From contig CABZIW010000001.1 in NCBI GenBank assembly GCA_902526005.1, forward strand, positions 94,988 to 158,987: a DNA stretch of 64,000 nt, in the 5' to 3' direction. Source of the stretch: an uncultured Pelagibacteraceae bacterium (GTDB taxonomy: Bacteria; Pseudomonadota; Alphaproteobacteria; Pelagibacterales; AG-422-B15). Made by a program: the position numbers and the translations under genes. Numbering within the stretch: the first letter of the stretch is position 1; every line of letters starts with the position of its first letter. The notes beneath the pieces are model-generated. The model was not told the DNA's origin, ran no database searches, and saw only the letters and a program-made list of their open reading frames with translations. Below are positions 8,121-20,249 of this stretch, in pieces.

Positions 8121-9071
8121 TTGATAAAAATGACCATTTTCCAAAGTATATTTACAAGCACATTTTTTATACTTCTACTTATTATAGTTGTACTCACAGT
8201 TATTTATGCATTTAACAGCTTTGAAAAAGGGAACTTAAAATCCTATCAGGAAAAATCTGACTATAATTTTGTCAACCTTTCTAAAGGAAAAACAGCCTAT
8301 AAGGATTATGGAAATAAAAATGATCCTGCAATAATTATTATTCATGGCGCAACTTTACCTTCAGAAGGATATGTTGGTTTCTGTGAGGGATTAAGTCTAA
8401 AAGGCTATAGGGTAATCTGTTATGATCAATACGGAAGAGGTTACTCTGACAGACCTGTTTCTGATTACAACATGGAATTTTATCTAGATCAACTTAACGA
8501 ATTATTAGATTATTTAGAAATAAAGAAATCTATTCTACATGGTTCATCAATGGGAGCTCCTATTGCAATCAATTACGCTAACAAATATCCAAATCAAGTA
8601 TCTGCTATTGGTTTACAAGTTCCTCTAGTAAATAGTAACAGTAAAATACTCAGTATTCTAAAAACTCCAATCCTAGGAAATTTTGTTTTAAGAACTTTTG
8701 GGATTCCTTTTTCAAAAAATAGAGCTGAACAATGGGTAACCAATAATCCTGAACAGAGAGATTTGGTTGACAGATACATTGCTCAACTTACACTGCCTGG
8801 AACAGAGCAATCACTGCTTTCTTCAATACGTAATATTGCAAATACAAACTTTATTCCTGATTATAAAAAATTCTCACAATCCGATATTCCTATTCATATA
8901 GCCTATGCAAGTGATGATGATGAAATTGATCCAAAAACTGTTCAACGGGTTTTAGACTTAATTCCAAGGGCTGAAAGTTTTGTTTTTACAGGTGGTCACG
9001 GTGGTGGTGGATTTATTGTTGATGAGCTCAATAATATATTTACTGACTTCCTTAATAAAAATTTAAACTAA
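8121..9071 (+). CDS. membrane-anchored alpha/beta-fold hydrolase
   Basis: N-terminal TM helix, oxyanion region IIIHGATL, nucleophile elbow GSSMG, C-terminal acidic/His region. The track start at 8121 is TTG; an in-frame ATG lies at 8130. Confidence 0.75.
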   Translation: MIKMTIFQSIFTSTFFILLLIIVVLTVIYAFNSFEKGNLKSYQEKSDYNFVNLSKGKTAYKDYGNKNDPAIIIIHGATLPSEGYVGFCEGLSLKGYRVICYDQYGRGYSDRPVSDYNMEFYLDQLNELLDYLEIKKSILHGSSMGAPIAINYANKYPNQVSAIGLQVPLVNSNSKILSILKTPILGNFVLRTFGIPFSKNRAEQWVTNNPEQRDLVDRYIAQLTLPGTEQSLLSSIRNIANTNFIPDYKKFSQSDIPIHIAYASDDDEIDPKTVQRVLDLIPRAESFVFTGGHGGGGFIVDELNNIFTDFLNKNLN

Positions 9072-10325
9072 GAGCAATCTATCAATCTGCGTTGTATAGT
9101 TTCTTGTACAGTTTTCTCTTTTTTGTCTCCAATTGCCAACTTTACATTCTGATGCCATCTGAAGTGTATCCCGACCATAACGGTAGTTAATGGCATCGAC
9201 TGCTGACATAAGATCAGAATTTTGATTATAATTTTTTTCAAATAGTGTCTCTTGAATTTCTGACTCATCACACAAACCACTAAGAAGTACACCTGCTTTT
9301 TTATACTGATAGTTATTTTTAAAAATTCTCTTTGTAAGCAATAAAGATGTTTCAATAATTGTTATGCTATCGTGGGTTGGATGAGAAAGCGTTCTTGATG
9401 CCCCGTTTGAATAATAAGCACTTTTTTTATCAAAAGGATTAGTTCTTACAAAGACCGAAACACAAGACGCCGCAAGGCTTTCAGAGCGTATACGTTCAGC
9501 AGCTCTTCGCGCAAAAGTTGTAACAGCTTGCTCTATGTCGTCTAAATTTGTCAGAAGTTTTCCAAATGATCTTGTGGTACAACAGCTTTTTCTTGTCATT
9601 GAGTATTCTTCAAGAGGAATACAAGAAATCCCTCTTAACTCTGTAATTGTTTTCAAGCCATTCACACTCATCATTTTTCTTATCCATGAGTCACTGCAAT
9701 TCTTTAGTAGTTTTGCATTATGTATACCATGGTTAATTAATTTTTTTGATAAACGTCTTCCTACTCCCCATACATCACCCACTTCAGTTAGTTCAAGTAT
9801 CTGGTCAATATTATTATAATTCGCAAGTGAACATACACCATTCAAAGAATCATCTTTTTTAGCCTTATGGTTTGCAACCTTTGCAAGAGTTTTTGTTGAG
9901 GCAATGCCTATGCTGACTGGAATTCCTGTATGCTGTAAGATAGTTTGTCTCAGTTGATGGGCATAAGACTCATAGTCAATTGGTAAACTGCTCAACTCTA
10001 CGAATGCTTCATCAATCGAATATATTTCTGTATAAGGGGAAGAACTTGAAATAATATTCATTACTCGGCGCGACATGTCTGCATACAATGTGTAGTTTGA
10101 AGAAAATACAACCACTTTTTCTTTTTCTACAATATCTTTCACCTTAAAAAGTGGAACACCCATTTTTATTCCAAGAGCCTTTGCTTCTTTGGAACGTGAT
10201 ATTATACAACCATCATTATTTGATAAAGCTACAACTGGTCTATTGTTAAGTTTTGGATTAAAAACGCGTTCGCATGAAACATAAAACGCATTACAATCAA
10301 TTAGTGCAAAAACTTTATCTCTCAT
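9063..10325 (-). CDS. umuC: Y-family translesion DNA polymerase V catalytic subunit
   Basis: N-terminus FALIDCNAFYVSCERVFNPKLNNRPVVALSNNDGCIISRS is typical UmuC. 420 aa, starting 3 nt downstream of the umuD stop. Confidence 0.9.
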   Translation of the reverse strand: MRDKVFALIDCNAFYVSCERVFNPKLNNRPVVALSNNDGCIISRSKEAKALGIKMGVPLFKVKDIVEKEKVVVFSSNYTLYADMSRRVMNIISSSSPYTEIYSIDEAFVELSSLPIDYESYAHQLRQTILQHTGIPVSIGIASTKTLAKVANHKAKKDDSLNGVCSLANYNNIDQILELTEVGDVWGVGRRLSKKLINHGIHNAKLLKNCSDSWIRKMMSVNGLKTITELRGISCIPLEEYSMTRKSCCTTRSFGKLLTNLDDIEQAVTTFARRAAERIRSESLAASCVSVFVRTNPFDKKSAYYSNGASRTLSHPTHDSITIIETSLLLTKRIFKNNYQYKKAGVLLSGLCDESEIQETLFEKNYNQNSDLMSAVDAINYRYGRDTLQMASECKVGNWRQKRENCTRNYTTQIDRLLLV

Positions 10326-10328
10326 TAA

Positions 10329-10727
10329 TTATCTATTCTTTGGACTTAAACTATGAACAACGTTTGTGCACACTCCCCATATGGTAAAATCCATTTCTTC
10401 AGAGACTAGAACATCAACATAGTTCTTGTTAGATGACGACAAACAAACTTGTTTATTTTCCATTTTTAAAATTTTAACACTCAGTTCCCCATCTAAAACT
10501 GCTATGATTATAGAGTTATTTCGAGGCTTAATGCTCCGATCAACAATGAGAAGATCTCCTGGATAAATACCTGAACCAATCATAGAGTCACCACGTGCTC
10601 GGACTATGAAAGTCGCATTTGGATGTGGAATAAGTTCCTCATTTAAGTCAATTGTCCCCTCTGTAAAATCTCTCGCTGGAGAGGGAAAACCGCACTCTAC
10701 TGCTTCTTTATAAAATGTTAAAAACAT
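10329..10727 (-). CDS. umuD: DNA polymerase V accessory subunit, LexA-like S24 self-cleaving protein
   Basis: VECGFPSPARDF...DLNEELIPHPNATFIVRARGDSMIGSGIYPGDLLIVDRS matches the UmuD cleavage site (C-G) and the Ser/Lys dyad region. I place the start at ATG 10727. The ORF-track start at 10796 is GTG, and that extension contains a promoter and SOS box (see the next two features). Confidence 0.85.
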   Translation of the reverse strand: MFLTFYKEAVECGFPSPARDFTEGTIDLNEELIPHPNATFIVRARGDSMIGSGIYPGDLLIVDRSIKPRNNSIIIAVLDGELSVKILKMENKQVCLSSSNKNYVDVLVSEEMDFTIWGVCTNVVHSLSPKNR

Positions 10728-10744
10728 TGGATAAATTCTATTTT

Positions 10745-10759
10745 GTTCTTGTTTTGTTC
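10745..10759 (-). promoter_or_regulatory. alphaproteobacterial-type LexA (SOS) box, GTTC-N7-GTTC
   Basis: The plus strand reads GTTCTTGTTTTGTTC, which is GAAC-N7-GAAC on the coding strand. It begins 2 nt downstream of the -10 hexamer and ends 17 nt upstream of ATG 10727. Confidence 0.65.
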
Positions 10760-10761
10760 TA

Positions 10762-10790
10762 ATTATTGCACTAGTGGAGGTAAGAGTCAA
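10762..10790 (-). promoter_or_regulatory. sigma-70-like promoter of umuDC
   Basis: On the minus strand: TTGACT (10790-10785), a 17-nt spacer, then AATAAT (10767-10762). Confidence 0.5.
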
Positions 10791-10807
10791 TACCACTCAA
10801 TAAATTT

Positions 10808-11752
10808 TTATGAAAAAAATTGTTTTTGAAAAAATGAAACAGCGTCTTTGTGACATTGCTTACGAGCCGCCCAATTACCTCCCGCATGAGCTCCGAGAAT
10901 ATCAGGTGTTTCTTTTAACAAACGCATTCTTTCTTCAAGTGAGTCTAGATGAAAAGTATTATTGTTTTCATCAGTAAAAATTTGTCGTCCATCCATCTTT
11001 AAATCAATAAACATGTCTTTCAGCCTAATGGCATAAGGAATAAATTCAACAGGGTCAATAGAGTCAAAAGAATGATGAGCGTTTGGATAAGTTGTAAGCT
11101 CTACACTACGAACAGGTTTCATATACTCGATCATTTTCTTACAAAGACTTAAAGGAGTATAGTCGTCATCTTCTCCAAATAAAACATGCATTGGAGCATC
11201 TGACCAACGATTATCTTCGGGCTTAAGTAGTGTCCCAGGATAAATAGGTAAATGCGCAGCAAACTTTTCGCCATTCTGAGTGAGAGTATCAATAATAGGT
11301 TGCCAGGCTGCATAAAAAGCTGTGCTACCGCCAAGACTCCACCCCATGATACCTATTTTATCACTATCAACATCGGGATGTTTAGAAACTAATGTTAATG
11401 CACGAAAGGCATCAGTAATCATCGAAGCAAGCGTTACTTCTGTTTGATTTTCAACGATTGAAATAACTCCTCTAGATTCAAAATGATGAATCCTAAAAAT
11501 AGCAAACCCAGCATCTAATAAATTGACCATGTGAGTGTGATGACCTTCTCTTAACCCTGCGCTACCATGAATTGGTATTATTAGAGGACATGGCTTCTTT
11601 GCATTTTCAGGAAAAATTAGTGTACCCCAAACATCTTGTTTATCATCCATGTTCTTACCATTTAGAAGATCATAAAACTCATATGGATTAGATGACTTAA
11701 AAAAGAAGACACCTTTTTTTTTCTTTTCAAATGGATTTATTTTGTCGGACAT
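10808..11752 (-). CDS. dienelactone-hydrolase-like alpha/beta hydrolase
   Basis: 314 aa with nucleophile elbow GWSLGGSTAF, downstream Asp (GEDDDYTP) and His (NAHHSFD) in DLH-family order. Confidence 0.7.
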   Translation of the reverse strand: MSDKINPFEKKKKGVFFFKSSNPYEFYDLLNGKNMDDKQDVWGTLIFPENAKKPCPLIIPIHGSAGLREGHHTHMVNLLDAGFAIFRIHHFESRGVISIVENQTEVTLASMITDAFRALTLVSKHPDVDSDKIGIMGWSLGGSTAFYAAWQPIIDTLTQNGEKFAAHLPIYPGTLLKPEDNRWSDAPMHVLFGEDDDYTPLSLCKKMIEYMKPVRSVELTTYPNAHHSFDSIDPVEFIPYAIRLKDMFIDLKMDGRQIFTDENNNTFHLDSLEERMRLLKETPDILGAHAGGNWAARKQCHKDAVSFFQKQFFS

Positions 11753-11864: not shown

Positions 11865-13133
11865 TTAGTCTCTAATTGAGTAGGCGATAACACCTGTCTC
11901 AGCTACGTCTGTTCCTTCTTTTTCAGCTTCTTCGCTAATCCTTATACCGATTGTGGCTTTCATAATTGACCATATAATTATGGACACTACGAATACGAAC
12001 ACACAAATTGATGCTGTGCCTAGGAATTGGGTTCCAAAGCTAGTATCCGGATTAGTAATTGGTACAGCAAGAGTACCCCATACACCTGCGATAAGGTGAA
12101 CTGGAATCGCTCCTACAACATCGTCAATTTTCATGGCTGTGAGTAACTCAGTACCAGCAAATACTAGTGCACCACCAATACCGCCAATAATGATTGCCAT
12201 TAAAGGTGTTGGCATTAATGGTTCTGCAGTTATTGCAACTAAACCACCAAGCGCACCATTTAACATCATTACTACATCAGTTTTACCTCTGACCAATCTT
12301 GTGATAGCAGCACATACTAGTACACCAGCACAAGCAGCAAGGTTTGTATTAATGTAAATTGTAGCAACGGCTGTAGCATCATCAAAAGATCCTAATGCCA
12401 GCTGTGAACCACCATTAAATCCAAACCAACCTAGCCATAGAATAAATACACCTAGAGTTGCAAGAGGTATAGATGAGTTTGCAAACGGTACTAATTTACC
12501 GTTATCAAATCTTCCAAGCCTTGGACCAAGAACAATTGCACCAGCTAATGCTGCAGCACCACCTGCTGCGTGCACAAGAGTTGAACCAGCAAAGTCTGAG
12601 AAGCCAGCAGCAGATAACCATCCACCACCCCATTGCCAACCCATCTCGATTGGATAAATTACACCCGTTAAAATTGCTACGAATAAAAAGAATGGCCAAA
12701 TTTTTATTCTTTCAGCTAATGTTCCTGAAACAATTGAAGCTGTTGTTGCACAGAAAACCATTTGAAAGAACCAGTCAGATCCATCAGAATAACCTGTAGC
12801 AATAGCAGAGCCGTCACTCCAAGCTGTAAATGATCCAATGTATCCACCTTCAGGTATTCCATAGGCCAAATTATATCCTACTAGCCAGAACATAATTCCA
12901 GCAATTGAATAAAGGCCAATGTTTTTTGCGGCTATCGTAGATACGCTTTTCGATGTAACTAAACCAGACTCTAACATACAGAATCCAGCAGCCATCCACA
13001 TCACTAGGAAACCACTAATTAAAAACAAAAGTGTATTTAAAGCATATGCCGTTTCGTCATCGACAGCTGCAAAAGCATTAGCGGATAATAGTGATGAAAA
13101 TAATACTGTATAAAGTATAACTTTTTTAAACAT
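11865..13133 (-). CDS. amtB: ammonium transporter
   Basis: 422 aa with a signal peptide (SANAFA). Amt/MEP-family core includes DFAGSTLVHAAGGAAALAGAIVLGPR and LGWFGFNGGS. Confidence 0.92.
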   Translation of the reverse strand: MFKKVILYTVLFSSLLSANAFAAVDDETAYALNTLLFLISGFLVMWMAAGFCMLESGLVTSKSVSTIAAKNIGLYSIAGIMFWLVGYNLAYGIPEGGYIGSFTAWSDGSAIATGYSDGSDWFFQMVFCATTASIVSGTLAERIKIWPFFLFVAILTGVIYPIEMGWQWGGGWLSAAGFSDFAGSTLVHAAGGAAALAGAIVLGPRLGRFDNGKLVPFANSSIPLATLGVFILWLGWFGFNGGSQLALGSFDDATAVATIYINTNLAACAGVLVCAAITRLVRGKTDVVMMLNGALGGLVAITAEPLMPTPLMAIIIGGIGGALVFAGTELLTAMKIDDVVGAIPVHLIAGVWGTLAVPITNPDTSFGTQFLGTASICVFVFVVSIIIWSIMKATIGIRISEEAEKEGTDVAETGVIAYSIRD

Positions 13134-13284
13134 GTATTTTCTCCCTATTTTTTTTTGATACCGGCATCATTTATTAAATGGCGGGATTCACAATTATGGT
13201 TGAATGCCAATATGACAACGTGTGGAAAAAAATTAATATTTAATAAAATCAATAATTTAGCAATGACTTTCTAATGCTAAATAT

Positions 13285-13449
13285 TCATTTATCTCGATTC
13301 CTCCAAGCATCTGCAGCAAGAAAAACTACACCAATCATCATCGATAAGTAAACAAAGTATAAAATAGTGAGTCCATATGCAGTCAAATATGCCCAGCTAA
13401 ACAAGGAACCTACGACAACAGATATTATGCTTGGAATTAAAAATTTCAT
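13285..13449 (-). CDS. unannotated 54-aa two-TM membrane peptide (hypothetical)
   Basis: Below the ORF-track cutoff. ATG at 13449, TGA at 13285-13287. Sequence: MKFLIPSIISVVVGSLFSWAYLTAYGLTILYFVYLSMMIGVVFLAADAWRNRDK. It has two hydrophobic helices and a charged tail. The only support is the ORF and its hydropathy. Confidence 0.35.
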   Translation of the reverse strand: MKFLIPSIISVVVGSLFSWAYLTAYGLTILYFVYLSMMIGVVFLAADAWRNRDK

Positions 13450-13465
13450 GAATTCAGAAAATTGA

Positions 13466-15871
13466 TTAAGAGAGAAAATCTACATAAATTGGTGACGACC
13501 ATGCGCGATGTTCATCAATTTCAGAACAAGTTTCAATATCTCTCGGATGTCTCCAGTCTTGCGTACACAATTTAAATTCTATACAATTACCTTCATCATC
13601 AAAAGTGCATACACCACCCTTCACATTTATCTGAGGTGATGGCAATTCAATAGCGCGGACATAATAACTTGCGTCTTTTTGATCTTTAAGGAAATCCTCA
13701 TCCTTAAATCTAAACGTACACCCAACATCATCTGGATTACAATAATGTACTTTCCACGTATCAATTATACGGTCATCTATAGGTTGATCAGAATATTCTT
13801 GAGGTAAAACTTTTATGACTTCAATGCGTTGTATAAAATTTCTTTTATCACTTGGATTATAACATTCGTTGTAACACAATTCATCTACTCTGTCTTCTCC
13901 AAGAGCATTATACGCATCTTCTGGACATCCTGGCTTTTGTTCAAATGATCCCATAGCCTTGACTTCAAATTCTGGTACAGCATACATTTCAACAGATGAG
14001 CCCATAGGAATTTTTTTATCACCACTAATCATATTGAACCATAGAAGAATTCTAGTTCCACTTGTTGCATAGGTTTCTTTTCTTTTAAGAGCATCCCATA
14101 TTTCTTCTTTTGAACGTCCATCTGAATGTACAGCAGCTAATCCACCTGTAGTGAAGAAGCCTCTTTGTTTTTCCCATTCAATTGTATTAAATCCAACAAT
14201 CAACTCTGGGATTTCATATTGTTGAGGTTGAGAGTCAGATATGTATGAGTCTTTAACTGGGTTTGAATTCTTGCCGGTGGGGCTTAGACTTTTTGGAAAA
14301 TACCAAGGATCCATATGAAGTAGTCTATCAAAAAATTTAGTAGGTGGACCGCTTCCATCAATGTTATTTCCAAATAATTCTTTATATCCACTTCCCGGCG
14401 CAGAAGAGTGATTGTCACTTGAGCCTATAAAGCCGTATCGAAACCTATGTTTTGTGCCATCATCTTTGAATTTAGTGAGAGCCAAACCGTATTGAGCACT
14501 TGCTCCAGGTACGTGATTCATTGGGGGACTGTAACAATCAGTACATTGGCCAGAAATATTACGATCTAAGAAAGTATTTTTTGGGACAACTTGATAACCA
14601 GCTCGACCCCTATCTACCACTGACTGTTTTGTTTCTTCTCTTCTTGATGCGCACTCAGACTCATCTGTGCCTTCATCGATGCATCTCTCATATATTATCT
14701 TGCCGGCCTGCCAACACTGAGGAATGTAATTGTCAGATGGATCAGGACATGTTTGAGTTCCAATATCGATTACTTCTTCCGAACCATCAGGGTCTTCAAT
14801 GGTAAAAGTTCCTTGATTTAAATCAATATCACCCATTGTAAAAGTAAAAGGCCTTGACTCTTGTTGGCCATTTCTGACAACATCAACACCACGCCAAGAG
14901 CGATACTCTTCAGCGTTACCGTGCCCAGAATAGGTTTCGAGAAGCTCAAACATTTTTGGAAATTTTTTTGAGTGCTCTAAACTTTTATCAAGAGTATAGC
15001 CAGCGGGTGTATAAAGTCCCCATGATTGGCCATGAGGTATAACCATATAGTCACTATCGTACATCTCTAATCTTGTAACTAAATCAAGTGGCGTGACCGC
15101 TTGTTCGTAACAATCAAGCGGCAAATCTTTTGACGGTGTTCTTAAATTACAATCAGGTACTTTAACTGTTTCCACCTGATAACGTTGAAAGTCATTGTAA
15201 CGTTTGAAATTTTCAAGATCGACAAAAGGGTACAGTGTCCCTGGCAGCAATGGTCTTGCAGTCATTGCTTGTCGTGCTACAGATAATGATGCGATTGCTC
15301 GAGGTGGCACCAATTGATCATCTTCTTCCTTTAAAATTACATTGTGATGTCCCCAATGATTGCCTCTGACAACACCAACTTGTGTCCACTCCCAACCTAA
15401 GAATGCCACACAGTCAGGATTTGCTGGATCAACATTCAAGGCATTACATTTTCGAATAGTTTCTTTTGTTTCCATCCATCTCTTTGGAGTTGTTGCTTCT
15501 GCATGATCATTAATTGACCAAAAATCTAATGCTGAACAGTGTCTTGCAAAATCACAGGCATCTGCAACAGGATGTACGCCATTCCCTCCAGTAATAGGTA
15601 AGCTCATTGCATGCGCGTCAGCAGAAAAAGTTGAGTGAACATGCAAATCACCAAATAGGATTTGCTTTGTCGGTATTTCATTTAATGACTCCATGGCCTG
15701 AAGTTGTCGTTTTTTCTTATCTTCAACAAATTCAACTGTATTTATTTTTCCAGTGATTTCACCGGGCCCAAGGTCTTCACTGAATAAACCAAATTGTAAA
15801 ACAACAAGACAACTAATGATAAAGAGAATAGATAGAATAAAAAAATATCTTATAACTTTTAAAATATTCAT
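13466..15871 (-). CDS. exported, Cys-rich DUF3604-like (PHP-type) metal-dependent hydrolase
   Basis: N-terminal signal anchor, then LFGDLHVHSTFSADA and DFWSINDHAE (PHP-like His/Asp metal ligands), GSSDNHSSAPG, and C-terminal AWSSPIYV, as I recall for DUF3604. About 21 Cys in the extracytoplasmic part. The track start 15895 is GTG; I use ATG 15871 (MNILKVIRYFF...). Confidence 0.7.
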   Translation of the reverse strand: MNILKVIRYFFILSILFIISCLVVLQFGLFSEDLGPGEITGKINTVEFVEDKKKRQLQAMESLNEIPTKQILFGDLHVHSTFSADAHAMSLPITGGNGVHPVADACDFARHCSALDFWSINDHAEATTPKRWMETKETIRKCNALNVDPANPDCVAFLGWEWTQVGVVRGNHWGHHNVILKEEDDQLVPPRAIASLSVARQAMTARPLLPGTLYPFVDLENFKRYNDFQRYQVETVKVPDCNLRTPSKDLPLDCYEQAVTPLDLVTRLEMYDSDYMVIPHGQSWGLYTPAGYTLDKSLEHSKKFPKMFELLETYSGHGNAEEYRSWRGVDVVRNGQQESRPFTFTMGDIDLNQGTFTIEDPDGSEEVIDIGTQTCPDPSDNYIPQCWQAGKIIYERCIDEGTDESECASRREETKQSVVDRGRAGYQVVPKNTFLDRNISGQCTDCYSPPMNHVPGASAQYGLALTKFKDDGTKHRFRYGFIGSSDNHSSAPGSGYKELFGNNIDGSGPPTKFFDRLLHMDPWYFPKSLSPTGKNSNPVKDSYISDSQPQQYEIPELIVGFNTIEWEKQRGFFTTGGLAAVHSDGRSKEEIWDALKRKETYATSGTRILLWFNMISGDKKIPMGSSVEMYAVPEFEVKAMGSFEQKPGCPEDAYNALGEDRVDELCYNECYNPSDKRNFIQRIEVIKVLPQEYSDQPIDDRIIDTWKVHYCNPDDVGCTFRFKDEDFLKDQKDASYYVRAIELPSPQINVKGGVCTFDDEGNCIEFKLCTQDWRHPRDIETCSEIDEHRAWSSPIYVDFLS

Positions 15872-15955
15872 ATAAAAAAAGTATAGTTCTGGCACTGCTT
15901 ATGTCAAAAGTATTTTCGTTATAATGATAAAAAAACCTATGGTAATCTCTCTGAA

Positions 15956-16858
15956 ATGATGAAAATTTTTAATAAATTAAATGTATTATTTTTTACTGCG
16001 ATCCTAGCAGGACTTTTTTTGATTTTTTACGATACAATTAGTTTTAATGACAACTTATCTCTCAGCAATAAAAAAGCTGTTGCTTTAGTGAATGAGACAG
16101 TCATCACAGAAGACCAGTTCCTCAGATTTGCAACAAATCTTGGAGCTGATTTAGACCTTAGTAACGATTTTGAAATACTCGATCTTCTTCTTGAACGTAT
16201 GATTGAGGAGGAACTTTTGGTGCAAAGAGGTATAGAACTTAATCTTCACAAAAAAGATATTGGTGTAAGAAAGGAAATGATTACTCAGGTCATCGATTTT
16301 ATTATTCAGGTTGAAGATAATCAGATAACTGAAGCTGATGTGAGAGACTATTTTAAAAAAAATATAAATAAGTATGCGCCAACGGAAAAAATTAAATTTG
16401 ATTTTATTTTTTTAAAATCAAATAATCCAAATTCTGTTTTGCTAGGAACTGAGTCTGATCTTAAAACACTTGAAACAAAAATAAGCAATATTAACCTTGA
16501 GTTAGATACTAAAACATTTTCGGAGGTAAAGCAGAAGTATAATGAAAACAATTTGTTTGATATCCCTCAAAAATTAATAAATCTGAAAGATTGTGAACAA
16601 TTATTAGGCAAAGGCATTTGTAATCAGATAACCATGATGGAGATAAATTCTATTTCTGAACCAATTTTCGGAACCAATGGGTTTTATATTTTTAAACTAT
16701 ACGATATTCAAAAATTAGAAGTGAATGACGATTACTTCGAGGAAATAAAAGATAGAATTATATTTGATTATAACAATCAACTAGATGATCAAAAATTAAA
16801 AGACTACCTTATATATTTAAAAGAAAATTCATCCATCACTAGGTATGATTTTCAATAA
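15956..16858 (+). CDS. SurA/PpiD-like periplasmic chaperone with degenerate parvulin domain
   Basis: N-terminal anchor. SurA_N-like segment (VALVNETVITEDQFLRF...LLERMIEEELLVQ). The C-terminal parvulin-like region (FDFIFLKS...FSEVKQKY...SEPIFGTNGFYIFKL) lacks the canonical His-containing HIL motif. Confidence 0.5.
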   Translation: MMKIFNKLNVLFFTAILAGLFLIFYDTISFNDNLSLSNKKAVALVNETVITEDQFLRFATNLGADLDLSNDFEILDLLLERMIEEELLVQRGIELNLHKKDIGVRKEMITQVIDFIIQVEDNQITEADVRDYFKKNINKYAPTEKIKFDFIFLKSNNPNSVLLGTESDLKTLETKISNINLELDTKTFSEVKQKYNENNLFDIPQKLINLKDCEQLLGKGICNQITMMEINSISEPIFGTNGFYIFKLYDIQKLEVNDDYFEEIKDRIIFDYNNQLDDQKLKDYLIYLKENSSITRYDFQ

Positions 16859-16861
16859 ATA

Positions 16862-18085
16862 ATGAATTATATCATTGCAAACACAGTCATAATCCTCTTT
16901 TTTCTTTTATCGCCATTGAATGCCCACTACTTTAGTGAGTCATTCTCTAAATGGAACGTTGTAGATAACAAAGTTGAGGCAAATTTTTCTCTTTTAACAC
17001 TTGAGTCCACTCGTATTTTTCAAGTTGAAAACTACCAGAAGATTATGTTTGAAGAGAATTTGAGTGAGACCGATGTATTCAAAATCTACCTCAGCCAGCA
17101 TCTCAAAGTCACCTCAGAAGGCAAAAGTTGTTCTCTTGTTGATGAAATTAAAGAATTAAATTCGCAAGAAGGAAGTTTAAATCTCTCACTAAATTTTGAA
17201 TGTCCATCAAACAAAGAAATAAAAATTATAAATAATGCGCTGTTTAATCTTGTTCAAAGTCATATTCATATAGCACGTATCTACATTGATAATAATTTAT
17301 ATACTGAAAAAGCCTTATTTTTTAATGATCAGTCAATTGATTTAAATGAAGAAAAGGAAAATAATAGCTTCTCGAATAGTTTTTATAAATTTTTCTCATT
17401 GGGTCTTGATCATATTCTAAGTGGCTATGATCACTTGCTATTTATTCTTGGACTGTTGCTTTTAGTAACAAATTTAAAACGATTGCTTCTGGTAATCACG
17501 GGATTCACTATTGGACACAGTTTAACTCTATCACTTTCAGTAATAAACATTATCCAAGTAAAATCCTCTTTAGTTGAAGCATTAATTGGTTATACAATAA
17601 TGTTCGTCGGCTTGGAATATTTGTATAAAGAAAATAATGATCATAGAGTAAGTATGATCTTTATAACGACGCTAAGTTTATTACTTTTAATATTTGGCAA
17701 TTTAATCAATCCAAATTTTCCGTATTTCTTAATATTAGGAATACTTCTATTTTCTCTAGGTTATTTTTACTTACTTAAAAATTTAAATTCAGAAAATAAT
17801 TTGCTATCTATTATAACAATTATTTTTGGACTTATTCATGGATTTGGTTTTGGAGGATTTTTACTTGGCTCAAAAATAAGTAGTGAAAATATTTTCTCTG
17901 GATTATTAGGTTTCAATTTAGGTGTAGAAGTAGGTCAGATAATTTTTGTCTTATTAATTTTATTAATATACAAATTATTAATGACATTAAAAATTACAAA
18001 AATAATAGAAGTCATGAAAAATCTTTCATTCTTTGTGGTTGTTTTCTTTGGTTTCTTCTTTTTTATTCAAAGACTCATAGCTTAA
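16862..18085 (+). CDS. HupE/UreJ-like membrane protein with ~180-aa N-terminal extracytoplasmic domain
   Basis: Signal peptide ends ...SPLNA|HYFSES, so the mature N-terminus is predicted to be His. GLDHILSGYDHLLFILGLLLL matches the HupE/UreJ(_2) signature, followed by multiple TM helices. It starts 3 nt after the preceding gene. Confidence 0.65.
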   Translation: MNYIIANTVIILFFLLSPLNAHYFSESFSKWNVVDNKVEANFSLLTLESTRIFQVENYQKIMFEENLSETDVFKIYLSQHLKVTSEGKSCSLVDEIKELNSQEGSLNLSLNFECPSNKEIKIINNALFNLVQSHIHIARIYIDNNLYTEKALFFNDQSIDLNEEKENNSFSNSFYKFFSLGLDHILSGYDHLLFILGLLLLVTNLKRLLLVITGFTIGHSLTLSLSVINIIQVKSSLVEALIGYTIMFVGLEYLYKENNDHRVSMIFITTLSLLLLIFGNLINPNFPYFLILGILLFSLGYFYLLKNLNSENNLLSIITIIFGLIHGFGFGGFLLGSKISSENIFSGLLGFNLGVEVGQIIFVLLILLIYKLLMTLKITKIIEVMKNLSFFVVVFFGFFFFIQRLIA

Positions 18086-18531
18086 AAAACAAATAAAAAC
18101 ATCAGGCTCGTAATAACTATCACTATTGATGAAAGAGATATTCTCATTGTTATAAACCATAATTGTGAGATTTTTTGCTGTTGATACAAATAATAATCAT
18201 GAACGACAGATATTAGAAAGCTTACAAGAATTAAACCTAATGAGAGACTTAAATTCTCAATACTCAAAAGTGCAGCCCAAGCAATCAATGGGGGCATAAC
18301 AGATATAAAAAGTGGAATAAAGACGTAGTAAATTTTGTCAGCAAAAGCTGTGATTAGGCCCCACTGAATACCACCCAGAAATGATGAGATGATTGCTGCA
18401 TATGCAACATAAATAAATAAAAGTAATCCATACAATTCTTCAGTTGGAGGTGATATTGCGCATGCAATTAAAATTAAGATAAATGGAATTAATCCAAGTC
18501 CACCCAAAATAAATGATTGTTTTTGGCCCAT
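18082..18531 (-). CDS. DUF3429-like small integral membrane protein
   Basis: 149 aa with 4-5 TM helices and a GGIQWG motif, as I recall for DUF3429. Confidence 0.55.
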   Translation of the reverse strand: MGQKQSFILGGLGLIPFILILIACAISPPTEELYGLLLFIYVAYAAIISSFLGGIQWGLITAFADKIYYVFIPLFISVMPPLIAWAALLSIENLSLSLGLILVSFLISVVHDYYLYQQQKISQLWFITMRISLSSIVIVITSLMFLFVF

Positions 18532-18533
18532 AA

Positions 18534-20249
18534 CTAGTCGGTAAATAATCCCAAGAATTTTAGAAATTCAAGTTTTCCACCTTCTACTTCGATCGTGTTA
18601 TTTGCTAGGAGAAGAGAGATAGCAGCTACATTTTTTAGACCGGCAAATACTTCCTTAAGAGTTTGTTGATCAGTGATGACTTTAACTTCAGCACTAGAAT
18701 CTGGTATTTTACTTAATTGGGCTACTCCTTTTCTTATATGAATAGTGTATACTTCTTCGCTATCGATAAATCTAAATTCATATTTTTTTGTTATTTCAAC
18801 AGATTTATCCGCGTTAAGATTTACGGGAAGTGACTTCATTATTGCTTTCATTGGTGTGGCCTGTAATTGTTCAGACGTAACACTATTCGGAGTTGATGGA
18901 TTTACATCAATTTCATCCCTTAATTCACCTGCAACTGTTTTATAAAAATAGTAATCGTTAGATGCAAGTTGAAACTTGGCTAATTGATCAGCTGCAGCAG
19001 CTTTTATATTTTTGGCTTGTGTATTGTTTGCATCAAGTGCGATTAACATATCTGATAATTCCAAGGCCCACTGATATTCTCCATTATCGAGAGCATTTTG
19101 TGCCTCATCAGATATTTTAGTTTGCCTTTGAGCCATAGCTTCTAATTTTTGAGCTCTCTCTTCAACAGTCAGAGGATGAAGGTCAGATATGTTTCCACTA
19201 AACCAGCCAATATAACCACTAAATGTTGATCTAACATAAGATGATATAGATCCATAAAAAGGTTGTAAGTATGGAGACTCAGCTAGGTGCTTTGGTAATT
19301 TTACTTTTTGCACAATCTCATCAGGCGTTAATCCTTTATTTGCATATCTTATAGTTTGGTCATGAACAAACTGAATGCCATCTCTATAATCAGTGAGAGC
19401 TTTTTCTACATTTTCTTTTCCACTTATAGGACGCGAGTGACTTGGAACCAGATGCTCTGCATTAAGTAATCTGATTTTATCGAGACTATCGACCCATTCC
19501 ATAGGATTTCTAAATTTTGTTCCTCTTATTGCGTATAAATTTGCAAATGATCTATAAAAATTATCACCAACCATCACAGCTTTTTTCTTAGGTATCCACA
19601 CATATAGATGATCATCTGTCTCACCAGGCACATGTGCTAAGACAAATGTAAGATTATCAATTTCAATAGTTAACTCATCATCAAAAAGTATAGTTGGTCT
19701 GACAAGGCCAAGCGTTTCTTGATCATTAATTTCTAAAAACCCTCCAATGCCTTGATGAACTATTTCTTCCTCGGGTAGAGGTATTCCAAACTGCCTTGCC
19801 GATCTTTGAAAGATTATCGGTCTTATAGTTGTTGCTATATTATCTAAATTATAAATTATATTTTCTTGCGCATATATTTCTGTTTCATTTTCGTTATAGA
19901 AAACAGTTGCACCACCAAGATGATCTAAATGATTATGAGTGTAAACGATAGCTACAATTGGTTTTTCTGAAATTTCTCTAAAATCTTGATATAATTCTTC
20001 CGCTCTTTCAACAGAACCCAATGTATCAACAATGACTAAACTGTTTTCCGTTTCAATCATAATTGAGTTCGCAAGGCCATATCCTACACCAACATAAATA
20101 TCCTCGGTTACTTCAATTAAATCCTTTTTAAATTCTTTTTTATGCTCCTGAGACAATCCTTGATCTGAGCTAAATGTCTCATTAGACTGGTTTTGATCAC
20201 CACATGAAACCAAAAAAGTAAAAAAGAAAAAGCTTATTAATATTTTCAT
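18534..20249 (-). CDS. metallo-beta-lactamase-fold alkyl/aryl-sulfatase lipoprotein (SdsA1/BDS1-like)
   Basis: Lipobox FLVSCG. MBL motif YTHNHLDHLGG. Central dimerisation-like region and C-terminal SCP2-like domain. At 571 aa, length and architecture fit type III alkylsulfatases. Confidence 0.8.
   Translation of the reverse strand: MKILISFFFFTFLVSCGDQNQSNETFSSDQGLSQEHKKEFKKDLIEVTEDIYVGVGYGLANSIMIETENSLVIVDTLGSVERAEELYQDFREISEKPIVAIVYTHNHLDHLGGATVFYNENETEIYAQENIIYNLDNIATTIRPIIFQRSARQFGIPLPEEEIVHQGIGGFLEINDQETLGLVRPTILFDDELTIEIDNLTFVLAHVPGETDDHLYVWIPKKKAVMVGDNFYRSFANLYAIRGTKFRNPMEWVDSLDKIRLLNAEHLVPSHSRPISGKENVEKALTDYRDGIQFVHDQTIRYANKGLTPDEIVQKVKLPKHLAESPYLQPFYGSISSYVRSTFSGYIGWFSGNISDLHPLTVEERAQKLEAMAQRQTKISDEAQNALDNGEYQWALELSDMLIALDANNTQAKNIKAAAADQLAKFQLASNDYYFYKTVAGELRDEIDVNPSTPNSVTSEQLQATPMKAIMKSLPVNLNADKSVEITKKYEFRFIDSEEVYTIHIRKGVAQLSKIPDSSAEVKVITDQQTLKEVFAGLKNVAAISLLLANNTIEVEGGKLEFLKFLGLFTD

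Follow-up and report, generated by a model that had tools for sequence, protein, structure and literature searches.

Conserved linkage of a DUF3604 protein with a parvulin-like protein and an anglerase-type HupE/UreJ-2 permease in SAR11 and other bacteria: a possible periplasmic metal-supply module

In a 64-kb stretch of a Pelagibacteraceae (SAR11) genome (64,000 nucleotides, called the window below), three neighbouring genes were found to encode a DUF3604 protein, a parvulin-like protein and a HupE-like permease. Family membership, conserved residues, predicted folds and a subfamily-specific linkage were observed, and on this basis the three genes were treated as one module. In the preferred reading, the module acts at the periplasmic face of the membrane, where the parvulin-like and HupE-like pair would supply metal and folding help to the DUF3604 enzyme. 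This reading is argued from gene context and is held tentatively, at a little under even confidence. The three genes were located as follows.

13466..15871, minus strand: DUF3604 gene with ATG start (801 aa plus stop); open reading frame (ORF) with PF12228 match, E = 2e-22
15956..16858, plus strand: SurA/PrsA/PpiD-like membrane-anchored protein, 300 aa (the parvulin-like protein)
16862..18085, plus strand: HupE-like gene, 407 aa, starting 3 nt after the stop of the parvulin-like gene

These genes and their coordinates had been pointed out in an earlier note on the window. All three ORFs were present as it described, its family assignments held in Pfam, and exact products of 801, 300 and 407 aa were present in public gene calls. 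The GC content of the window was about 0.28-0.38. The proteins of the DUF3604 locus showed 100% identity to those of the single-cell genome AG-422-B15 and 98-100% identity to several AG-89x single amplified genomes (SAGs).

Linkage of the three gene families

Gene neighbourhoods were investigated in an enzyme-seeded sample of 80 species-representative DUF3604 genome loci, 13 from SAR11 and 67 from other lineages. The parvulin-like and HupE-like genes were each seen in 38 of the 80 loci and were adjacent wherever both were seen; loci showing just one of the two include contig-end or short-contig cases, such as L006 and L056. Counted over genome loci with either gene, adjacency held in about 37 of 38, the exception being truncated by a contig end. 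The divergent arrangement of the window was found in 12 of the 13 SAR11 loci. Outside SAR11, the pair adjoined the DUF3604 gene in 21 loci and lay elsewhere in the locus in 3 more. Eighteen of these 21 linked loci were co-directional in the order DUF3604, parvulin-like, HupE-like, with ORFs often overlapping; two had the order parvulin-like, HupE-like, DUF3604, and one was divergent. The carriers belong to the Alpha- and Gammaproteobacteria, Myxococcota, and Binatia, and include Robiginitomaculum, Hyphomonadaceae, Parvibaculales, OCS116, Hyphococcus, Woeseiaceae, Nevskiaceae, Salinisphaerales, and Myxococcaceae. All-against-all clustering of the neighbouring ORFs showed that the parvulin-like and HupE-like genes were the only strongly recurrent real neighbours, the other large neighbour clusters being alternative-frame artefacts within the DUF3604 gene. 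The earlier note had staked its proposal on co-occurrence of the three families in other genomes; the families were linked across phyla, far beyond chance, and the proposal was not overturned.

A permease-seeded sample consisted of 80 metagenome loci obtained with the HupE-like profile. In the closer relatives, the parvulin-like gene lay directly upstream of the permease gene wherever the sequence sufficed, and DUF3604 was adjacent in at least 17 loci (14 scored automatically, plus L118, L145, and L151). The DUF3604 gene adjoined the pair in about two-thirds of the assessable cases, and the tightest unit is the pair of parvulin-like and HupE-like genes. When five diverse HupE-like homologues (P0243, P0257, P0245, P0250, and P0248) were sampled reciprocally, all five proved to be encoded in operons that also contain DUF3604 and SurA_N/Rotamase_2 genes.

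The linkage was also specific to subfamilies. The more distant pairs adjoined canonical PF12228 proteins (Pfam E = 1e-175 to 1e-231). In every assessable locus, permeases with a type A N-terminal domain (H-x-R/F-S-x-S-F-S-x-W) occurred with Cys-rich DUF3604 proteins, and those with a type B domain (H-E/D-x-R-P-x-Y-x-E) occurred with canonical DUF3604 proteins. One Salinisphaerales metagenome-assembled genome (MAG; locus L057) carried both cognate sets within 13 kb. The subfamily-specific pairing and the duplication of a whole set argue for an enzyme-specific partnership over a generic ion importer. Oxidative folding of a Cys-rich client was considered as the explanation of the chaperone and was rejected, since the same types of partner accompany canonical DUF3604 proteins, which have 0-7 Cys.

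Inherited SAR11 synteny without a functional link was weighed as an alternative. The wider SAR11 neighbourhood (a dienelactone-hydrolase-like protein, an ammonium transporter, DUF3429, and an alkylsulfatase) was also syntenic in 12 loci, so local synteny proves little, and in the window the enzyme is transcribed divergently from the pair. However, the same three families were adjacent in distant phyla in a different, operon-like order, the five reciprocally sampled loci included, and the second DUF3604 subfamily showed the adjacency again, with a divergent pair of its own. Chance synteny can in effect be excluded, and synteny inherited without function is highly improbable as an account of the module.

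Variants of the arrangement were also seen. Two or three DUF3604 paralogues stood in tandem or in clusters at L033 (2645-10063), L043 (9872-14410), L134 (3993-8980), and L151 (1174-5119). In L134 and L151, two canonical paralogues lay ahead of one chaperone-permease pair, and therefore one pair may serve several enzymes. Some contigs of the reciprocal sample also carried a short SurA_N-only gene and an HbpS-like gene. The non-SAR11 loci L161 (6426-8663), L165 (4002-6324), L166 (6423-8687), and L167 (2795-5119) had extra module members: a SurA_N-only protein of about 190-205 aa immediately before the HupE-like gene, and an HbpS-like gene (PF03928) immediately after it. In these four loci, DUF1329 and DUF1330 were nearby and the full SurA_N plus Rotamase_2 gene was placed separately.

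The three proteins and the layout of the locus

The DUF3604 protein was divided into three parts.

15794..15868, minus strand: predicted N-terminal signal-anchor helix, residues 2-26; hydrophobic stretch in all 25 aligned homologues, helix in the model
14072..15664, minus strand: PHP-like catalytic region, residues ~70-600, with Cys-rich insertions; putative ligands H77, H79, D85, H123, E161, H175, H280, D486, H488
13469..14071, minus strand: C-terminal all-beta domain, residues ~600-801, with 8 invariant Cys; DSSP strands throughout 600-799 of the model

The window protein matched PF12228 with 79.8 bits (cut-off 20.4) in two to three stretches only, the best of which covered profile positions 320-413. 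All 25 homologues of the alignment (44-84% identity) also matched PF12228. More than 5000 homologues were found, and the near-identical cluster at 90% identity held 512 member sequences. A profile search of 1.84 billion cluster representatives revealed 3,583 relatives (50% identity clusters) at E ≤ 1e-3, with 535 at E ≤ 1e-30. No Rosetta-stone fusion was evident from the lengths of the best 150 DUF3604 representatives.

The PHP-like ligands previously read in GDLHVHS (H77, H79) and NDHAE (D122, H123) were present and invariant in the 25 homologues. The invariant residues of this alignment were D75, H77, H79, D85, D122, H123, E161, H172, H175, H280, H317, D486, N487, H488, and H582, together with 20 Cys. 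The protein was Cys-rich as claimed, with an actual count of 22 in place of about 21. A second alignment included eight canonical PF12228 proteins from loci beside other chaperone-permease pairs (E down to 4e-231). It had 36 invariant columns, from G74 to P794, and the window subfamily was set apart by insertions and by the 20 Cys. Residues H77, H79, D85, D122, H123, E161, H175, H280, D486, and H488 were invariant in both subfamilies. Nine of them (all but D122) follow the PHP ligand order HxH / D / H / E / H / H / DxH, which we take to map onto YcdX H7/H9/H15/H40/E73/H101/H131/D192/H194; the tentative assignment of single residues to particular metal sites follows YcdX and histidinol-phosphate phosphatase. 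The Cys positions were unconserved in canonical DUF3604, most members of which have 0-7 Cys. By this comparison, the invariant Cys are a subfamily trait and the predicted metal ligands are superfamily-wide.

The anchor helix has K5 and R8 before it and acidic residues after it, and no AxA cleavage motif followed it in any of the 25 homologues. By the positive-inside rule, the topology would be N-in, C-out. The earlier description of a membrane-anchored, extracytoplasmic protein is plausible. About 10 structural disulfides are probable in the Cys-rich subfamily, because the invariant Cys are even in number and subfamily-specific and the predicted topology is periplasmic.

The AlphaFold2 model of the DUF3604 protein had a pLDDT of 78 and a pTM of 0.84. 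Foldseek comparison with the PDB gave PHP-like phosphoesterases as the top four matches (3o0f, 3e0f, and 3e38; prob 0.85-0.99), followed by the PHP domain of Pol III alpha; Ig-like and beta-sandwich matches were obtained too. A DUF3604 profile search of the PDB sequences detected no solved structure. The sole other named family with a signal was the CehA/McbA metallohydrolase family (NF038032), for which the window protein scored 20.7 bits against a cut-off of 80 and so fell outside the family. Sub-threshold CehA/McbA matches, located at the N-terminal PHP motifs, were found in 13 of the 25 relatives (best E 4.7e-9, about 80 profile positions aligned), and the sequence comparison points to a distant relative only. 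From these features we infer a signal-anchored periplasmic hydrolase with a predicted PHP-type multinuclear metal site.

The start of the DUF3604 gene and the region between the divergent genes were defined by the following elements.

13466..15895, minus strand: longest DUF3604 ORF, with GTG start at 15895
15872..15955: divergent intergenic region, 84 bp
15907..15880, minus strand: promoter-like TTGACA-16-TATACT, 11/12 consensus match; best site of the region in a consensus scan
15858..15887, plus strand: weaker promoter-like match in the consensus scan

The GTG at 15895 was rejected as the start codon, and the true start is almost certainly the ATG at 15871, giving 801 aa. This follows from four observations: the homologues are 793-807 aa long and their alignment begins at the Met of this ATG; the ATG is kept in other SAR11 loci, in which the upstream GTG is not conserved; the publicly called product has 801 aa; and the promoter-like site lies inside the GTG extension. 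With this start, the divergent intergenic region is 84 bp and not 60 bp as the earlier note had it. The sigma-70-like site (15880-15907, minus strand) ends 9 nt before the ATG, and therefore the DUF3604 mRNA would be nearly leaderless; the total count of promoter-like sites found by the consensus scan in the intergenic region was not above shuffled expectation. No Shine-Dalgarno sequence was visible ahead of any of the three genes. An Rfam scan of the divergent region found no element, metal riboswitches included, and the more distant SAR11 loci compared had no conserved operator or intergenic sequence. A partial Fur-box-like ATAATGATAA, noted by eye in the divergent region, was dismissed as uninformative at 30% GC and unconserved.

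The parvulin-like protein consists of a transmembrane (TM) anchor (residues ~8-25), a SurA_N-like helical domain with EELL, a degenerate parvulin domain (~124-266), and a C-terminal helix. It matched Rotamase_2 with 32.6 bits (cut-off 27; E = 1.5e-7), and the SurA_N matches were weak (SurA_N_3 19.6 bits, below the cut-off of 27.2; SurA_N_2 also weak). The family profile searched against the PDB matched SurA (6.5e-13), HP0175 (1e-10), Cbf2/PEB4, and PrsA, spanning the chaperone and parvulin regions. Alignment of 28 homologues showed a hydrophobic N-terminal anchor and invariant A43, V45, E85, L87, and P204; the family motifs were an invariant AxV strand and EELL(V/L)Q.

The catalytic residues were compared with those of Par10 (H8, C40, H84), for which the mapping is approximate and the hhalign probability was low. 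The first catalytic His of parvulins had a counterpart in none of the 28 homologues, and the window protein had I at the C40 position and Y at the H84 position (FYIFKL). The second catalytic His was kept by a minority of the homologues (FHILKL). The degenerate parvulin that had been proposed was thus recovered, the catalytic His, Cys/Asp, and His positions all being lost in the window protein. Because these positions are lost, it is reasonable to read the protein as a chaperone only. PpiD and SurA domain P1 are further examples of inactive parvulin domains.

The HupE-like protein was divided as follows.

16862..16924, plus strand: predicted signal peptide, residues 1-21 (ending in SPLNA, followed by H)
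16925..17356, plus strand: anglerase-like/ZrgA-like periplasmic domain, residues 22-~165; candidate metal-binding domain
17369..18085, plus strand: HupE/UreJ-2 transmembrane core, residues ~170-407 plus stop; helical at 170-406 in the model

The 407-aa HupE/UreJ-type protein agreed with its earlier description: the spacing of 3 nt was exact, and the GYDHLLFILGLLLL core and the site between LNA and HYF were present. It matched HupE_UreJ_2 (PF13795) with 129.1 bits (cut-off 24.5; E = 1.5e-37) and, weakly, HupE_UreJ (PF04955) with 23.9 bits (cut-off 23; E = 3.4e-5). The claimed periplasmic N-terminal domain exists, but it covers about 145 aa after the signal peptide, the earlier figure of about 180 aa having counted the signal peptide.

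Two sets of homologues were aligned, 28 from the loci and 24 from databases (about 30% identity). In 28 of 28 and 24 of 24 sequences, (A/S)-x-(A/S) was followed by His (H22), in line with the mature N-terminal His proposed by the earlier note, and cleavage at this site is predicted. The invariants of the N-terminal domain were H22 (mature residue 1), S27, W31, T50, C90, C114, H134, and H136. Those of the membrane core, over the 28 plus 24 sequences, were H184-x5-D190-H191, H219, E239, H326, N352, E356, and Q359. The protein thus has the HX5DH in the first TM helix and the conserved His/Glu in later helices by which HupE/UreJ proteins are recognized. In the type B permeases, the predicted mature residue 1 was His in 13 of 15 and Asp in 2 of 15. 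The Asp cases were L151 6004-7068 (GWA before DEARP) and L146 1829-2878 (VNA before DEIRP), and therefore the N-terminal His is not absolutely conserved in the sister lineage.

In anglerases, a domain with an N-terminal His is attached to a HupE/UreJ-2 permease (Franco Cairo et al., Nat Commun 2025, PMC12537917; PDB 9GCE). This domain is a beta-sandwich in which three helices link strands 2 and 3, and its closest structure is that of ZrgA (PMC12537917). The AF2 model of the HupE-like protein had a pLDDT of 76, and its N-terminal domain showed strands at 26-34 and 37-45, helices at 46-54, 56-64, and 69-80, and then the strands of a beta-sandwich. Foldseek comparison of this domain with the PDB gave Zn-bound ZrgA (8f1b; E = 5.5e-4, TM 0.67, prob 1.0), Cu-bound Ang-1 (9GCE; E = 6e-4, prob 1.0), and PA4063 (prob 1.0). 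A type B representative searched against the PDB sequences gave no match to 9GCE and nothing relevant.

The first search for HupE-like homologues returned 99-100% identical SAR11 sequences among the best 120 matches, and diverse homologues were obtained with a profile of the locus translations. Among these best 120 matches, all 99-100% identical, one exact sequence was found on 721 contigs and another on 217. Near-identical proteins thus occur on hundreds of contigs, and therefore this SAR11 genotype is very abundant in public marine metagenomes.

The module is flanked by the following genes.

10808..11752: dienelactone-hydrolase-like protein (DLH)
11865..13133: ammonium transporter (AmtB)
18082..18531, minus strand: DUF3429 membrane protein, convergent with the HupE-like gene; 4-nt coding overlap (18082-18085)
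18534..20249, minus strand: alkylsulfatase-type metallo-beta-lactamase (MBL) with Lactamase_B, Alkyl_sulf_dimr, and Alkyl_sulf_C; lipoprotein-like N-terminus (FLVSC)

The synteny of the DUF3429 gene is confined to the SAR11 loci (12) and does not extend to other lineages. The alkylsulfatase-type MBL gene is two genes away from the three-gene module in SAR11. Two adjacent ORFs at 9063-10796 (minus strand), read from their translation alone, resemble genes for a umuD-like S24 peptidase (155 aa) and for a DNA polymerase of the Y family (UmuC/ImpB-type, 420 aa); a streamlined SAR11 genome would then carry a gene pair for SOS mutagenesis.

Proposed mechanism and alternative explanations

In the proposed mechanism, the PHP-fold site of the DUF3604 enzyme would bind up to three divalent metal ions via H77/H79, D85, H123, E161, H175, H280, and D486/H488, and the roughly 10 disulfides would stiffen the fold of the Cys-rich subfamily. 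The enzyme would most likely cleave an ester bond (phospho-, sulfo-, carboxyl- or carbamate-type) of an organic substrate. The cleaved HupE-like protein would capture a transition-metal ion above the permease mouth with its N-terminal H22, possibly together with SHxH (H134/H136). The parvulin-like protein would be a PpiD/PrsA-like membrane-anchored holdase without proline isomerisation. The pair would concentrate or hand over the metal at the membrane surface and would keep the Sec-exported enzyme competent for metal insertion. By analogy, possible metals are Cu or Ni (as for RbAng-1a) and Zn (as for ZrgA, PA4063, and many PHP enzymes); Mn, Co, and Fe are possible too. A more specific form of this mechanism, in which the parvulin-like holdase and the anglerase-HupE/UreJ-2 permease are a client-specific periplasmic 'metal insertase' for DUF3604 and each subfamily has co-evolved with its own pair, is considered conceivable but doubtful.

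Several observations weigh against the supply of metal to DUF3604 by the pair. The share of DUF3604 loci outside SAR11 with the pair beside the enzyme was put at about 40%. About 31 non-SAR11 DUF3604 loci lack the pair although each flank covers at least 2.5 kb, and at least 7 pairs with adequate flanks have no DUF3604 nearby; the neighbours of the seven DUF3604-less pairs examined were heterogeneous and suggested no alternative client. The link would therefore be facultative or act in trans. The Foldseek matches between the DUF3604 model and PHP structures, whose fold is a distorted (beta/alpha)7 barrel, were weak (E ~1e-3, TM 0.30-0.34 relative to target). The 28-sequence profile of the N-domain family matched none of the PDB chains at E ≤ 10, 9GCE included. 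Gene context fits the pair serving the enzyme and the enzyme serving the pair alike, and uptake by a HupE/UreJ-type permease is not obviously useful to a Sec-exported periplasmic enzyme.

If the dependence is reversed, the pair would be a metal uptake system and DUF3604 would act upstream of it, in the periplasm, by hydrolysing either an organic ligand of the metal or a (phospho)ester that binds it. The N-terminal His domain would then pick up the released ion for import. Open-ocean trace metals are mostly bound to organic ligands, which would suit such a system. The pair is the invariant unit and is found also without adjacent DUF3604, the published model for anglerase-HupE/UreJ-2 proteins is capture followed by uptake (PMC12537917), and the fold relatives ZrgA and PA4063 belong to Zn-uptake operons (PMC9820375, PMC8561739). 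An uptake-first account keeps some probability because Ni import into the cytoplasm is the function of the HupE/UreJ proteins characterised so far (Brito 2010, as cited in PMC12537917) and because uptake is also what the anglerase paper proposes. However, the DUF3604 protein retains the full catalytic ligand set and would itself be a metal consumer. The double set of L057 and the strict subfamily pairing are better explained by a protein-specific partnership, and no metal-responsive regulator or other metal-uptake gene was found among the annotated recurrent neighbours. The reversed dependence is judged unlikely.

The genes around the module bear on a further alternative, a membrane complex for substrate processing. 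Here DUF3604 would hydrolyse a hydrophobic or organic ester in the periplasm, the HupE-like protein would be an anchor, a regulator or a product conduit with structural metal sites, and the complex would be kept stable by the parvulin-like protein. Each of the three proteins begins with a membrane or signal segment and would be tethered to the membrane. The nearest named relatives by catalytic motif, CehA and McbA, are periplasmic carbamate-ester hydrolases (PMC8292978). Alkylsulfatase-like MBL genes recur near DUF3604: besides the SAR11 gene, they were found near the module in L020 (14273-15778) and L057 (4517-6358), and in four Halieaceae-type loci without the pair (L038, L047, L055, and L074, ~12190-13680) a shorter relative overlaps the DUF3604 gene or comes right after it. 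This recurrence may hint at a substrate class shared with DUF3604. Other neighbours across the loci were often lipid, alcohol, and acyl-CoA enzymes and DUF1329; they included a short-chain dehydrogenase/reductase (SDR), acyl-CoA dehydrogenase, CoA-transferase, enoyl-CoA hydratase, acyl-CoA synthetase, thiolase, glutathione S-transferase (GST), PQQ-dependent alcohol dehydrogenase (PQQ-ADH), and a major facilitator superfamily (MFS) protein.

On the other side, the residues that never vary in the HupE-like protein (N-terminal His, SHxH, HX5DH, and TM His/Glu) are just the ones that metal binding would call for. The acyl-CoA-type neighbours come from very large families, vary by locus, and may be there by chance. 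The lipid- and alcohol-type neighbours were for these reasons not relied on as a substrate clue. Together with the CehA/McbA kinship and the alkylsulfatase-like MBL, they are kept as a weak hint towards hydrophobic or organic esters. A substrate-processing complex is regarded as rather improbable, and supply of metal and folding help by the pair remains the preferred reading.

DUF3604 is a sizeable family of abundant marine heterotrophs, and its linkage to a metal-capturing permease and a chaperone suggests how the enzyme gets its metal and gives a testable route to its function. For a streamlined SAR11 genome, it is costly to keep an 801-aa protein together with two partners dedicated to it. 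The 2025 description of anglerases presents them only as metal 'fishing' domains of a generic kind, for which the module offers a candidate specific client. If the metal-insertase form of the mechanism is true, the DUF3604 enzyme would be the first physiological client of anglerases, and the module would represent a new class of periplasmic metalloenzyme maturation in SAR11 and many marine heterotrophs. The preferred reading, if confirmed, would also explain how a Sec-exported enzyme receives the right metal in metal-poor seawater.

Comparison with known systems

Each component family is already known, as is the N-terminal-His/HupE-UreJ-2 architecture (published 2025, PMC12537917). What appears to be undescribed in the literature searched is that DUF3604 enzymes are linked, in a conserved and subfamily-specific way, to a parvulin-like chaperone and an anglerase-type permease. 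In that literature, DUF3604 was mentioned only in an unrelated context, and PF12228 and HupE_UreJ_2 were not found. The gene neighbourhoods reported for anglerases contain unknowns, DUF4198, indigoidine-A-like proteins, and PfkB kinases (PMC12537917). Neither DUF3604 nor a dedicated parvulin-like partner is mentioned in the main text of that paper or in the supplementary text consulted.

In the anglerase RbAng-1a, a mono-histidine brace via His1 binds Cu2+ with a Kd of 74 nM and Ni2+ with a Kd of 220 nM, and anglerases are proposed to fish metal ions and feed the permease (PMC12537917). The HupE-like protein of the window shares with them the order of signal peptide, mature His 1, beta-sandwich with three helices between strands 2 and 3, short linker, and PF13795 core. 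For MmAng-2a-HupE/UreJ-2, a candidate permease metal site has been given as His194/His201/His229 (PMC12537917), and H184/H191/H219 of the window protein have the same spacing (7, 28). The window lineage differs by invariant C90/C114, presumably a disulfide, and by SHxH (134-136), and it has no HMMER similarity to the 9GCE domain. Because the N-terminal domain has no detectable homology to RbAng-1a and has its own Cys pair and SHxH motif, the window protein is best placed in an anglerase-like lineage of its own.

The best fold matches of the N-terminal domain were ZrgA of Vibrio cholerae and PA4063 of Pseudomonas aeruginosa (TM 0.5-0.67, prob 1.0; identity 4-13%). Both are periplasmic zinc-binding proteins encoded with a membrane transporter (PMC9820375, PMC8561739). 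Unlike the window protein, they are soluble stand-alone proteins of ABC-type Zn operons with His-rich loops, and they have neither a permease fusion nor an N-terminal His brace.

The DUF3604 protein shares its ligand pattern with PHP phosphoesterases (3e38, 3o0f/3e0f; YcdX and histidinol-phosphate phosphatase type), and 3e38 also has a C-terminal beta domain. It is two to three times larger than these enzymes, with long insertions, is predicted to be exported and membrane-anchored, and has 20 invariant Cys. CehA and McbA are periplasmic hydrolases of carbamate esters (carbaryl) with a PHP-like His-dependent domain, and McbA has an N-terminal TM segment (PMC8292978). The Cys-rich insertions and partner genes of DUF3604 are not known for CehA/McbA.

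The parvulin-like protein shares a helical N-domain, one parvulin domain and a C-terminal helix with PpiD, PrsA, SurA, HP0175, and PEB4. Its anchor is PpiD-like, but it is half the size of PpiD. General secretion chaperones, unlike the window protein, are not expected as the obligatory partner of a metal permease with often overlapping stop and start codons.

The HupE/UreJ Ni permeases of [NiFe]-hydrogenase and urease operons (Brito et al. 2010, as cited in PMC12537917) are likewise small metal permeases encoded beside a metalloenzyme, as the window permease is beside its putative client, and they have in common with it the signal peptide, HX5DH, and conserved TM His/Glu. They belong to PF04955, whereas the window protein belongs to PF13795 and has an extra periplasmic domain of about 145 aa and an obligatory parvulin-like partner. 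Their clients gain Ni in the cytoplasm; the putative client in the window would be periplasmic and membrane-anchored. The theme common to both is a metalloenzyme encoded with a HupE/UreJ-type accessory permease, with the putative client here extracytoplasmic and the chaperone partner obligatory.

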